Positions 25,306 through 48,834 of a stretch of DNA of 64,000 bases are shown one piece after another. Below the pieces are notes generated by a model. The model searched no databases. It worked only from the letters and a program-made list of their open reading frames with translations, and was not told the DNA's origin. Position numbers and translations under genes: made by a program. The stretch is taken from positions 4,650,001-4,714,000 of the forward strand of contig CM035359.1 of NCBI GenBank assembly GCA_020137815.1, in the 5' to 3' direction. Origin of the DNA: Hormiphora californensis. Its lineage: Eukaryota > Animalia > Ctenophora. The number at the start of each line of letters is the position of its first letter. Position 1 is the stretch's first letter.

Positions 25306-25512
25306 AGTAGTATAGAACTGGTGAACTGACGTCAAATTTTGATTGGCACGCTGTCAGAACTGGTTAATTGGCGTCACATTTTGATTGTCACGGTATCACA
25401 ACTGGTGAATTGGCGTCACGATTTTCACGATATCACAAGTGATGAATTGACGTCACAATTCTACTAATGCACAATACTGTAGTATGAGAGAGAAGGGGGA
25501 GGGGTGTAAATA
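25306..25512 (+). repeat. Left terminal inverted repeat
   Basis: Reverse complement of 48650-48834 apart from a few substitutions and ~22 extra bp; internal TGACGTCA/TGGCGTCA repeats. Confidence 0.95.
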
Positions 25513-25557
25513 CCAGGTGACAGTGATATGCTCATTTCTTAACTTTTCGTTTCTGAT

Positions 25558-26076
25558 ATGTTTAACATTGCTTGGTGGCCCGAAGAGGAGTTTTGCATTG
25601 AGAAGGTGAAGGAGCACTTTGAGGACATTGTTTGCTTCATGGTTGACAAACGCCTTGAAGAGGATATCTATCGTTTCCCAGTGCAACATACTCATGAGGT
25701 TGAAGAAAAGGTTGGAGAAGTGTTAAAAAAGTATGGTGGTGCTAATTTTCCTATATCCATAGAGTTTGCTTACTACAGTCAAGATGATAAAACCGAAGTT
25801 TGTTCAGTGAAAAACTACCCGGAAAGAATTATTTACGAAAGTTTACCAAAGGATTTATTGAGTCTTGTTGTAAGCTCATCGCGTGAATTAGTGATGTGTC
25901 TCGCTTTTGTGAGGATCTTTGTCGACACAACTTATCAATGTGAAGATGACAACGAACCGTTTTTGTTAAAAGGAAATGTAGAATCTTTGTTCAAAGCTCC
26001 GTCTGAGGAAGATGAATGTGATTGTGGGAGGTGTGAACTTATAGAAGACTTTTTGAATAAGTTGGATACCTCTTAA
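25558..26076 (+). CDS. Polinton hypothetical protein, 172 aa
   Basis: Intact acidic ORF just inside the TIR; no motif recognised. Confidence 0.6.
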   Translation: MFNIAWWPEEEFCIEKVKEHFEDIVCFMVDKRLEEDIYRFPVQHTHEVEEKVGEVLKKYGGANFPISIEFAYYSQDDKTEVCSVKNYPERIIYESLPKDLLSLVVSSSRELVMCLAFVRIFVDTTYQCEDDNEPFLLKGNVESLFKAPSEEDECDCGRCELIEDFLNKLDTS

Positions 26077-26119
26077 GTTAATCAATGAAACTTTTATTTT
26101 TATTTAAAAAAAACTGAGT

Positions 26120-26609
26120 TTATTTTAGAAAACAACAATCAAAAATTTTATCAATCAATTTTTCTCGTTCACTTATTTGCGAAAGTACATATAATCTGTC
26201 AACAAACTGTGTGTTACCAAGCGAGTCCTTGTCATCACAAAAGTAGTTTCCACACTCCTTGGCATGTAAAAATCCCTCGACAATAGTTCCACGATCACGA
26301 CATTCTGGCAAACCATGCGATTCAATGAGTTTAAAAGTAACTCGTCTTGCTTTTTTGCGTCTCAAAGCTCCATTTTCAACTACTTTCTTATCAAAGAATA
26401 TGTTTCCTTCTTTGGAGATGTCAAGTTTGGCAAGGGAATCCGTGAAGTCAAACTTAGGTAATGATGCTTTTGACATCTCTTTAGCAAAGAACAATTTTTA
26501 CAGAAGCCACGAAATTTCTTGGAGGAGTCTCCCGAGAAAAAATCAAACAAATTATAACTCTGCATTACGGTAATGATCAGTTTTGATGAACTACATCAAG
26601 ATATTTCAT
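26120..26609 (-). CDS. Polinton hypothetical protein (5' part probably frameshifted)
   Basis: ORF 26120-26494 has coding-like composition; overlapping ORF 26380-26565. Confidence 0.45.
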
Positions 26610-27200
26610 ACTTTTAGCTATTGTGTTAACGATATTGATGAAGGAATCGCTATTCTTTACTATCTCTTGTTTCAACACGGTATTTGATGCGCTATCTAAC
26701 TTTCGAATAAAATTTCTGTCTGCATTTGTTAGTTTGCGTCGTTGTGGAGTGGATATTGGAATGATTCCATATATCAGTGCCTGTAGTATATTCTGAAATG
26801 CAGATAATAGTTTAGTTGATTTCACAAAAGCACTCACATTCCCTGCATCAACAAGATCTTTAATTTTAAAGAAACTGGTTATTGAGTTGGTGTTGATAAC
26901 AGATTCTGAAAAATTATTGTAGTTTGGATCATCAAAATTTGTTTTGAATTCGTTTAACTGTTGGTTAAGGGATTTTATTTTGCGCTCGCTTTCATTTCTT
27001 ATCTTTTTGAAGTCCTTTAGTTTGTTGCTATATAACCGCTTAAACTTATCACTATTTGGGTTGGTGGTGTTGTTGTAGAGATTTTGGTCTTTTTAGGTAT
27101 GACTTTGGTTGGAATATCGGTTTTGTGCTCTGCTCTATGCTGTAAAAAACTAGTATAAGTTGAAAAAGATTTGGAACAAACAGCACAATCCATTTTAGCA
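26577..27200 (-). CDS. Polinton hypothetical basic protein (frameshifted, start uncertain)
   Basis: C-terminal ALIYGIIPISTPQRRKL...FIRKL resembles small conserved Polinton proteins. Confidence 0.4.
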
Positions 27201-27234
27201 TAAAAGGGGTCTTATGTAGAGTATTTATAGTGTT

Positions 27235-45843: not shown

Positions 45844-47271
45844 AGAGGAGAAAGAGGGAGGGTGAGAGAGAGAGGAAGTGAGGGAGAAAGAGAGGGTAGG
45901 GAAAGAGAATAAGAGAGAGAAGGAGAGAGAGAGAGGAAGAGTGAGAGAGCAGATTTTTGTGATAAGTCTTGACTGGATTAGGAGATTTCTTTTTAAAAAC
46001 AACAACAATTAACAAAGTTTTGAAATTTTGAAGAAAAAACAATTGAAAATTTTCAGTGTTTGATGCGCAGCTTTTGAGAGAGAGCGTGCAGAGTGTACTG
46101 TTAATTGTGGTTAAAGTGCGTTTCAAACGACTTGACCCGAGATTCCTGGAAATTCAGGATTTCCCCTTTGTAAATACACGCGCAATGTACCAAATTCCAG
46201 GAATCACGGGTCAAGTCGCTTGAAACGGACTTTAGAGTCAGAGCATGGTCCAAACAGCGCGAATTTTGTGAAAATTGGTTGAGATACGTGACTTGGGAAG
46301 GGTTAAAATGTGTACCATGTTAGATACTACTGTAGATACTACTGTAGATACTACTGTACCATGTTAGATACTACTGTAGATACTACTGTAACTACATGCC
46401 ACTGTGTCACCTCAATACTAGTAGGGGGCGGTAGTGGGAAGTTGGGTCTAGAATTTCAAATTTAACCACCTGACATTCAGCTGAGAAGTAGTGAAATCTA
46501 CAGCAGAGTGTATCTCTGTCCAGATCGGACTATTGAGGAGAGACGAGAGAGAAGAGAGAATCTACAGACACTTGAAAAACCCTGAGAGACAGTTCGAACT
46601 GAAGAGAGGGGTTATACAGTTTTTGTGCAATGGCCCCACTAATAGTTAGGATTTTCGATTTATTACGTGTCCACCTGGTAATTTCTAGGATTAATCCCGA
46701 CATCTACTTGTGTGGCCACAATGTGGACTCCACATATTTATTATCTAACCAGGAGTGTGTTTTATAAACTTGCACACAGAGCATAGCTCTCATTTATTAG
46801 TGCTATCCTCCAATCTGCACGCCCATGATCACATGAGGTCAGATTATGTTCAAACCATGTCAAACCGTGTCAAACCGTGTCACACTAACCTTATTGGATG
46901 TAGATGAAGCATGAGGACGGGTTGATAGATCTTGCTGCAGGTTGTTGTTGTTGGGTGATTCTTCAGAATCTGGTCCTGGGGGAGAGGGATTATTAGGGGT
47001 ATCAAGCAGTGTGATCTTACACGAAGAGAGTGAGAGAGAGAGAGAGAGAGTGAGGAGAGAGAGAGAGAGAGAGAGAGAGAGAGAGAGAGAGAGAGAGAGA
47101 GAGAGAGAAGAGAGAGAGAGAGAGAGAGAGAGAGAGAGAGAGAGAGAGAGAGAGAGAGAGAGAGAGAGCGAAAAGTGAACTTTAGTGATACTATATTCTC
47201 TTAGTATCCCGATCAGATCATTATATCTAGATACCTTTCCCCTGTAAGTGTTGCATATCATATATGATATA

Positions 47272-47444
47272 CAGTCGGACCCCGATTTAACGGCCCCCGA
47301 TTTAGCGGCACCCCGATTTAACGGCAGCATAATCTTCCCCCGATATAGGAAAATAACAGTATTTGAAACCCGATTTAGCGGACACCCCGATTTAACGGAC
47401 AAAACCCTTTCCCCCGAGGATGCCGTTAAATCGGGGTCCGACTG
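47272..47444. mobile_element. Tc1/mariner-like MITE nested in the Polinton
   Basis: TA|CAGTCGGACCCCGATTTAAC...GTTAAATCGGGGTCCGACTG|TA. Confidence 0.88.
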
Positions 47445-47646
47445 TATATATCTATTATGATTCTCCCTGAAAACGAAGTTTGGCCCATTTATCTTTTCGT
47501 TTAAGCTCATTCCTCCAGAGAGAGAGAGAGAGAGAAAGAGAGAGAGAGAGAGAGAGAGATTCATGTAGTACAATGTATCATCAAGGGTGAGAGTGAGAGA
47601 GTGACTCAGGTAATAAATATAGTTAGTGTTCTGTACGTTCAATTTG

Positions 47647-48184
47647 ATGCCACCGAAACGAAAAGATGTTGTTGTCTGCCCACTTAGTCAGTTGGCGGAT
47701 CTGGACCCGGTCAGGAGGGAAGAAGAAATGAAGAAGAGAAAAACGGATCAGAAATGTTTGAGACAAAGAAAATGTCGGGCTAAAAGGAAGGCGACGGACC
47801 CGCTGGCGCTCCTAAGTGTCGATATATTTGGCTGCTCTATGACAGAAGAAGAAGAAGAAAAGAACACTGTAAAACAGCTCAAAGGTTAGTAGAGACGAAT
47901 CTTTTGACTATTTGGTGAAGAGAAAAGTCCAGTTGCAACCCAGCTATTTTGAACTTCTTTTGATAAGAAATTCATCCCTACTAGTTGAGATAAAAAACAT
48001 GAAACAAAAACATAAGGTGGAGATGGCGGAGATGGCGAGAAAGTTGAATTTGGCGCTCGGGGAATCGGAGAGAATGAAAGTAGAGAATGAAGATTTGAAG
48101 CGAGAGTTAAGCGATAGAGCCAGGGAACACCCAGTGACGGCGGACATGGCACTGAATATGCCAACTTTAGAAGGTACAATTTAA
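47647..48184 (+). CDS. Basic-region plus coiled-coil protein, bZIP-like (one frameshift near 47882)
   Basis: MPPKRK...EEEMKKRKTDQKCLRQRKCRAKRK, then heptad-rich LVEIKNMKQKH...MKVENEDLKRELS. Confidence 0.55.
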
Positions 48185-48649
48185 ACTATCTCAATTACAA
48201 TATGTGGGACGGGGAGTTTTGTACAGATTATAGAACACTTAATATTTCAGAAATGGGGTTTGTGGACGATTTGTGAAGTGCTGAAGCCCAAACTGCTCTG
48301 ATTGGTGATATATCTAACGGCACGTCTACTGTGGGAGATGTGACTGAGACAATACCTGTGCGGGGAGGGAGACGGTAGCGTAGCTGATAGAACTTCGATA
48401 GTACTCCATTGCAGTACAGTGCGGTTGTAGTTGAGTTTGTAGGGCTGTTTGGTAGGGAGGTAGGCGATCAAAAACAAGAACTGGTGGGGAATATGGGGTT
48501 TGAACCGATCTTTATACTATCATCTGACTAGAGATAAAATCTCTCTGTGAGGGTGACTTAAAATCTTGCTCATGTCACCCTTACACAAAGATCTCTCTAT
48601 ATCGGGTATCACATAGAGCACTGTTTACTCTACCGTTATACTAAATAAA

Positions 48650-48834
48650 TATTTACAACCCTCCCCCTTCTCTCTCATACTACAGTATTGTGTATTAGTA
48701 GAATTGTGACTTGTAATATCGTGACGCCAATTCACCAGTTGTGATACCGTGACAATCAAAATGTGACGTCAATTAACCAGTTCTGACAGCGTGCCAATCA
48801 AAATTTGACGTCAGTTCACCAGTTCTATACTACT
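48650..48834 (-). repeat. Right terminal inverted repeat
   Basis: Ends ...CAGTTCTATACTACT followed by TTCTTG. Confidence 0.95.

Follow-up and report, generated by a model that had tools for sequence, protein, structure and literature searches.

Results

A Polinton/Maverick with an intron-dense and an intron-free arm

The window analysed here is a 64,000-nucleotide stretch of the comb jelly Hormiphora californensis (GenBank assembly GCA_020137815.1, contig CM035359.1, positions 4,650,001 to 4,714,000), and all coordinates below are positions within it. It contains, at 25306-48834, a full-length Polinton/Maverick of 23.5 kb in which an intron-dense arm with the DNA polymerase and accessory genes stands beside an intron-free arm with the integrase and virion genes. 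This two-part anatomy, proposed in an initial annotation made from the letters alone, holds. The element runs from AGTAGT to ACTACT, AG...CT (AGTAGT) termini being a trait of the Polinton/Maverick family, and these termini close inverted repeats of about 200 bp that are 87% identical over 207 columns with two gaps (98% over the first 120 nt). The 6-bp target-site duplication TTCTTG is present on both flanks.

The core genes of the family are also in place. A retroviral-like integrase is recognised by PF00665 (E 2e-14), though broken by a stop in this copy, and the ATPase (PF02456, E 7e-5) and protease (PF00770, E 0.004) both match open reading frames (ORFs) of related loci over their full length. 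A polymerase exon matches PF03175 at E 6e-4, as does the 57%-identical relative P0160 at E 5e-17, which identifies a protein-primed polymerase B. The capsid assignment runs through the 89%-identical relative P0121, whose low-confidence structural model (pLDDT 54) returned a double jelly-roll capsid in every listed PDB hit (best E 2e-10), pointing to a double jelly-roll major capsid protein here as well.

25300-25305, no strand, left target-site duplication TTCTTG
25306-25512, no strand, left terminal inverted repeat, starting with AGTAGT and containing repeated TGACGTCA/GGCGTCA motifs
27235-28268, plus strand, rve integrase with chromodomain, intronless, in-frame stop at 27843-27845 (no intron and the same stop with 11 of 11 homologues)
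28268-28870, plus strand, packaging ATPase (IVa2/A32-like), one open frame, intronless
29446-29886, minus strand, adenain-like cysteine protease, one open frame, intronless
29883-31335, minus strand, major capsid protein gene, intronless, four frameshifts near 31110, 30622, 30436 and 30099
33545-38089, minus strand, intact 15-exon gene for a protein-primed DNA polymerase B of 1243 aa
48650-48834, no strand, right terminal inverted repeat
48835-48840, no strand, right target-site duplication TTCTTG

Fourteen introns split an intact polymerase gene

Introns were mapped with a purpose-written spliced protein-to-DNA aligner, by which homologue proteins were aligned to the window DNA. The polymerase is divided by 14 GT-AG introns between 37916 and 34124, which are 50-74 nt long (median 55.5) and have a GC content of 0.24 versus 0.37 in the exons.

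37916-37858, 37623-37569, 37365-37300, 37154-37098, 36932-36880, minus strand, polymerase introns 1-5
36675-36622, 36466-36410, 35970-35915, 35794-35745, 35414-35361, minus strand, polymerase introns 6-10
35053-35001, 34767-34697, 34424-34371, 34197-34124, minus strand, polymerase introns 11-14

Eight homologues were aligned: four give all 14 introns, three give the same introns within a shorter aligned span, and the last, a gene model without some segments, deviates at three of them. P0160 and P0162 also each yield the complete set. The spliced frame is open across 1243 codons, with zero stops and zero frameshifts. The aligner does not invent introns, because it made only eight calls in 56,787 aligned residues at 81 more distant Polinton-like loci, compared with 14 in 1243 residues here. 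The nearest named polymerases are gene models of Mnemiopsis leidyi, at up to 69% identity over 332 columns. An origin of the 14 introns as introners was rejected, as they show no mutual likeness (best pair score 14, mean shuffled maximum 15.2).

The distant polymerase-type loci came from metagenome scans (80) and prokaryote-genome scans (5), and scans of viral contigs gave a single distant locus, for the polymerase, and nothing for the capsid, penton or ATPase. Four distant Polinton-like polymerases (L045, L055, L062 and L063) have possible introns; three of them share a 95-115-nt phase-1 call at one residue, and L063 has two calls. Five contigs with a Polinton-type polymerase (L082-L086) are filed in bacterial metagenome-assembled genomes and are probably binning contaminants.

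Polymerase intron positions are inherited and turn over among relatives

Fragments of related polymerases are intron-blind gene calls on genomic contigs, and such calls break at introns. Among 57 shorter relatives of the first 460 residues of P0160, a subset of 23 combines short length with an identity of 55% or more; in this subset a window intron lies no more than 2 aa from the end of 22 fragments and from the start of 17, where chance is 0.076 per end. Positions 1, 2, 5, 6, 7, 10 and 12 are common to the window and its relatives. P0157, P0158 and P0193, on contigs of up to 15,293 nt, are pieces of the 1278-aa P0160 at 99.7-100% identity, and P0157 and P0193 switch to unrelated letters exactly at intron positions. 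The joined form, which sits on contigs of 4.0-4.8 kb, would most simply be a spliced transcript of this relative, an intron-free DNA copy being another possibility. Splicing of the polymerase is thus suggested indirectly, through one relative that occurs both in pieces and joined.

The positions are not fixed. P0001-P0007 and P0010, found by a search able to return such cases only, read through introns 13 and 14, and P0215 reads through intron 4; the ends of four relative fragments fall near residue 799, a place without an intron in the window. Polymerase intron positions turn over among relatives. In a quick tree of 68 rows the clade that holds the window has 19 rows (support 93) and is adjacent to one of 12 rows (support 99) with the Mnemiopsis rows, and the same wider clade as the window includes P0024 and P0045, full-length single-ORF polymerases on contigs of 31 kb and 305 kb. 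Since relatives share its introns, the polymerase arm is not captured host DNA, and the comparison identifies the intron-rich polymerase as an element gene found throughout the lineage.

The integrase and virion arm is free of introns and damaged in this copy

None of the homologues aligned to the integrase (11), ATPase (3), protease (3) and capsid (10) supports an intron over 3529 coding bases; at the intron density of the polymerase, the chance of finding zero lies between 2e-6 and 9e-5. The initial annotation had found no introns in 25.5-33.5 kb, and named introns in the capsid or integrase genes as what would refute the split. For the four genes the absence is borne out by homologues, and for the other nine ORFs of the arm, which have no homologue, it is read from splice signals. 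With a splice matrix trained on the polymerase introns only, the arm yields six donor/acceptor pairs on the minus strand and seven on the plus strand, at the level of shuffled sequence (mean 3.9, maximum 11), and all hits except 29387-29470 are antisense or would cut out coding sequence that homologues match. Capsid relatives agree, 10 of 14 hits being single full-length ORFs of 447-485 aa at 40-89% identity, and the three best integrase hits measure 354-362 aa.

Two kinds of candidate capsid introns were rejected. The breaks in the capsid gene are frame changes of one or two bases relative to the 89%-identical homologue, and the ‘introns’ of 33-105 nt that some distant homologues propose correspond to coding sequence in the nearest homologue.

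The left arm is nevertheless broken in this copy, a feature that the initial annotation overlooked: five lesions (one integrase stop, four capsid frameshifts) fall in the 3529 tested bases versus none in 3732 polymerase bases (p about 0.03). They may reflect decay or assembly error; the longest homopolymer runs near the breaks are 3-4 nt, which does not decide whether homopolymer errors caused them. The intact virion genes of an active virus are therefore not present, and because capsid and integrase are broken, the copy could not form particles or integrate unaided. An ATG directly follows the integrase stop (27843-27848), many of the short integrase hits break off at residues 212-230, and the integrase may naturally exist as two parts.

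The remaining features of the left arm are as follows.

25558-26076, plus strand, single-exon ORF, no assigned function
26120-26476, minus strand, single-exon ORF, no assigned function
26577-27193, minus strand, C2H2 zinc-finger gene without homologue, probable frame change near 27050
27194-27234, no strand, divergent promoter region of 41 nt; on both strands a TATA-like box precedes the start codon by about 35 nt
28849-29435, plus strand, two small overlapping or abutting ORFs (28849-29160 and 29163-29435), no homologue found
31332-31579, minus strand, small ORF without homologue, probable frame change
31608-32362, minus strand, probable minor capsid (penton) gene in several frames
32364-32918, minus strand, single-exon ORF with a TATA box about 37 nt upstream, heading the capsid/protease run
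33043-33495, plus strand, single-exon ORF converging on the polymerase stop and marking the module boundary

The penton identity is a lead only, the nearest named Atlas cluster being Sputnik V18/19 at 0.92, with recognition under threshold. An Atlas search with 32367-32918 gave no match.

Accessory genes carry a further 21 predicted introns

Nine accessory gene models with open frames occupy 38.2-45.0 kb and contain 21 predicted introns of 51-113 nt. These introns are called from splice signals, joined in the case of g7 and g8 by paralogy, as both intron positions match between the two. No homologue of the accessory genes was found.

38248-39136, minus strand, paralogous genes in tandem, g8 (38616-38248) and g7 (39136-38761), each with two introns whose positions match
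39222-39842, minus strand, two small genes, g6 (39511-39222) and g5 (39842-39590), each predicted to have a single intron
39939-40520, plus strand, predicted gene on the opposite strand, two introns
40933-41555, minus strand, predicted gene g4, four introns
42506-43173, minus strand, predicted gene g3, four introns, with an upstream region duplicated with that of g2 (81% over 128 nt)
43398-43979, minus strand, predicted gene g2 with two introns and a pair of U1/matrin-like zinc fingers (weak Pfam matches, E 0.016-0.25)
44087-44275, no strand, host-type miniature inverted-repeat transposable element (MITE), with a second copy at 47261-47450 and a related copy in the flank at 8312-8479
44382-45029, minus strand, predicted gene g1, three introns
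47647-47889 and 48023-48276, plus strand, two small ORFs near the right end, the second with one predicted 77-nt intron

The accessory region holds 35 splice-matrix pairs versus a shuffle mean of 4.3 (maximum 11 in 30 shuffles). A count that needs no model agrees: GTAAGT occurs 18 times on the minus strand of 34-44 kb, compared with zero on the minus and one on the plus strand of 25-34 kb (first nine bins). Together with the polymerase, 33.5-45.1 kb thus contains 35 introns, 14 supported by homologues and 21 predicted from signals, of which 27 are at most 75 nt and the longest is 113 nt. This matches the initial estimate of about 30 or more, mostly of 50-75 bp. That they are shorter than host introns also stands up against one left-flank gene, whose introns measure 134-455 nt (median 207), all above the element's longest; this host set consists of one joint from RNA and 10 hand calls, two of the original 12 having been discarded for failing a frame test. 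Intron-like signals, missed in the first reading, extend past 45 kb, and upstream of g1 strong donor/acceptor pairs (45249/45219-45176) lie within a 470-bp tandem duplication (44904-45843).

GC content is similar in both arms (0.35 versus 0.33-0.35). The segment 38.1-43 kb is element-like at 0.33, the flanks being at 0.42-0.45, whereas 43-48.6 kb is at 0.42 as in the host and carries microsatellites and MITEs. Two repeats were seen within the accessory region. An inverted repeat at 43378-43487 spans the last exon and 3' end of g2, where an RNA hairpin could form. A direct repeat (41688-41868 and 41905-42085, 92% identical) has a 57-nt inverted repeat in each copy, and short pieces of it match one contig of RNA run X1. 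Just two short records among the X1 contigs match the element, and host exons are matched at about 85-90%, so X1 is uninformative about the element.

The two arms differ in their 5' signals

All ten right-arm genes, the polymerase included, have a YAG 1-8 nt upstream of the ATG, compared with 3 of 13 left-arm genes (Fisher p 0.0004; background 151 of 731). The right-arm acceptors follow a pyrimidine-rich tract, with a branch-like motif in 8 of 10. Conversely, a TATA box about 35 nt ahead of the ATG is found for 3 of the 13 left-arm genes and for none of the 10 on the right. From g5 to the polymerase the intergenic gaps are 78-158 nt and without a strong donor, so that unpaired acceptors before starts and short gaps occur together, as expected of operons served by leader trans-splicing. 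In published work, 56% or more of the long cDNA reads of Hormiphora carry a leader and ctenophore mRNAs are mostly leader-spliced (PMC8527503), and nematode operon gaps are typically near 100 bp (PMC7986045). Given these two precedents, the simplest reading is a trans-spliced operon ending in the polymerase, and the signals suggest that the right arm is a leader-trans-spliced, operon-like unit. An acceptor before the start in one arm and a TATA box in the other fit two modes of expression.

A doubtful alternative is that the right-arm acceptors are joined in cis to a shared leader whose promoter lies close to the right end, in the manner of adenoviruses, instead of receiving the host spliced leader. 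It would make use of the strong donor/acceptor pairs that lie in non-coding sequence upstream of g1 (45.2 and 45.7 kb), and suits the location of 9 of the 10 genes on one strand, but one acceptor-headed gene lies on the other strand, and trans-spliced leaders are widespread in ctenophores (PMC8527503).

Sequence surrounding the element

The gene that provided the host intron sizes is a multi-exon coiled-coil gene at 7449-20300 (plus strand), in which exon differences from X1 are mostly at third positions. One or more thrombospondin-type repeat genes flank the element (23118-25180 and 49624-50322, plus strand); the segments 24.8-25.2 kb and 49.9-50.3 kb are alike, and assembly error or decay has filled the left copy with indels. 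Further to the right are a host gene that reads by eye as a seven-transmembrane receptor with a long C-terminal exon (50771-54545, minus strand), a MITE-like inverted repeat (54647-55135) and a palindrome with a perfect junction and 164-nt arms (58408-58735).

Discussion

The present element is a real variant of the Polinton/Maverick kind. A division into intron-rich and intron-free genes has already been published for punuivirus of Chlamydomonas. Both set intron-bearing genes, in punuivirus host-like latency genes, against virion genes with promoter motifs; punuivirus, however, is a 617-kb nucleocytovirus of an alga in which 61 of 506 genes have introns, interspersed and shown by RNA, whereas the element described here is 23.5 kb, physically split and read from DNA (10.64898/2026.10.09.758095). 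Vertebrate Mavericks share with it the inverted repeats, the 6-bp duplication, the genes for protein-primed polymerase B, integrase, ATPase, protease and capsid, and two modules, but their ATPase is beside the polymerase and not beside integrase and capsid, and the ORFs of intact vertebrate elements are intronless (PMC8097293). In nematode Mavericks, too, virion genes without introns adjoin a region of intron-bearing genes, but there the polymerase belongs to the intronless core and the introns to host cargo, whereas here a core gene is the most intron-dense (10.1101/2022.07.12.499685). Intronless core ORFs, a described trait of intact vertebrate and nematode elements and not a formal criterion, are thus absent from this one, with its 14 polymerase introns.

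Mirusviruses, which belong to another realm, resemble the element in that their core genes contain short spliceosomal introns, that these turn over between relatives and that a ratchet model applies, and differ in that their intron-rich orders are enriched for introns in virion genes; demutoviruses and pandoraviruses have introns in early genes only (PMC12768974). Dinoflagellate Polinton-like elements also carry introns within full-length proviruses, but these are repetitive introners gained mostly after integration, whereas ours resemble one another no more than shuffled sequences do and have inherited positions (PMC12166617). The available part of the adintovirus paper (PMC8502044) has no relevant intron passage. 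A literature search, covering sources outside subscription papers and Repbase, returned no paper dealing with ctenophore Polintons or with spliceosomal introns in the polymerases of animal Polintons.

What could keep introns in one arm and out of the other? We lean slightly toward the explanation that the intron-dense polymerase/accessory arm and the intron-free integrase/virion arm belong to a lineage that has likely resided in comb jellies for long and whose arms are likely expressed differently. The right arm would be made up of host-type spliced, probably leader-trans-spliced units, active early or while integrated, and the left arm would be transcribed from TATA promoters, unspliced, at particle production. 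Introns would pile up as a ratchet in genes that are always processed by the host nucleus and would be purged from the compact, overlapping, high-output virion units, and we infer selection against introns in the virion genes. The initial annotation suggested that early genes are possibly processed like host genes to escape the silencing of intronless transcripts; HUSH silences intronless RNA.

Several points weigh against this explanation. The early/late assignment comes from gene identity only, and the integrase is no textbook late gene. Unexplained are 38 of the 155 integrase hits that are shorter than 300 aa; the capsid search took longer proteins only, so that intron-split relatives could not appear; and no relative's contig joins a split polymerase with an unsplit capsid. 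The acceptor criterion was chosen after the sequences had been seen, several starts were hand-picked or predicted, and a TAG is also close upstream of the integrase and capsid starts. Finally, modules of such viruses are often swapped (10.64898/2026.10.13.758929), and mirusviruses show the reverse pattern (PMC12768974).

It is unlikely, in our view, that the split reflects module age and not regulation, the replication arm having been in the host lineage for long and the virion/integrase arm having been swapped in later from intron-free relatives. Replication and morphogenesis modules do reassociate often (10.64898/2026.10.13.758929), and intron-free kin exist, namely the single-ORF polymerases P0024 and P0045 of the 19-row clade. 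Against this stand the unsplit capsid relatives at 40-89% identity, a depth equal to the 55-80% of the intron-sharing polymerases, and the GC content that both arms have in common. The 14 capsid hits, moreover, all group closely together, three EukProt ‘sb’ models among them, a name we take to denote Pleurobrachia.

A passive bias is improbable. Introns would then become fixed only in genes that are transcribed and spliced while integrated and that have room for them, the virion arm being silent or overlapped; there would be no selected early/late programme, and the polymerase arm would perhaps be kept for its own sake. The concentration of lesions in the left arm fits such a bias, as do the overlapping or abutting left ORFs and the intron turnover, with introns 4, 13 and 14 in the window and not in some relatives and one near residue 799 in relatives only. 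However, many relatives have intact capsid and integrase ORFs, and therefore the virion arm is under selection in the lineage; the overlaps are confined to gene ends, and assembly error may account for the lesions, given the many indels in the flank at 23.8-25.2 kb.

Capture of host DNA, which the initial annotation raised for the whole right arm, is refuted for the polymerase by the introns it shares with relatives, and for the accessory part (38.2-48.6 kb), the polymerase alone then being element-born, it is quite improbable though compatible with the other readings: the lack of homologues, the host-like GC, microsatellites and MITEs of 43-48.6 kb and the intron-bearing cargo of nematode Mavericks (10.1101/2022.07.12.499685) speak for it, but 38.1-43 kb matches the element in GC and not the flanks, the accessory introns resemble those of the polymerase and not those of the host, and the genes are tiny, packed and headed by the polymerase-type 5' signal.

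Differential expression of the two arms could be taken one step further. Tentatively, comb jelly Polintons might be temperate viruses in which a trans-spliced latency/replication operon ending in the 15-exon polymerase adjoins an intron-free, TATA-driven virion arm, with splicing perhaps held back at the switch by the zinc-finger protein of the U1 type.

In conclusion, Polinton core genes have been described as intron-free, and this polymerase departs from that description; ORF-based screens would take it for a wreck, though it is the intact gene. Intron positions that are inherited and yet shift across many elements provide a compact system for following the gain and loss of spliceosomal introns in a mobile element. 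The sharp boundary and the differing 5' signals make a staged programme of animal Polintons, latent or early versus virion, testable. If the temperate reading is true, a virus-like element would have adopted host trans-splicing for half its genome, and would hence be bound to hosts with that machinery.

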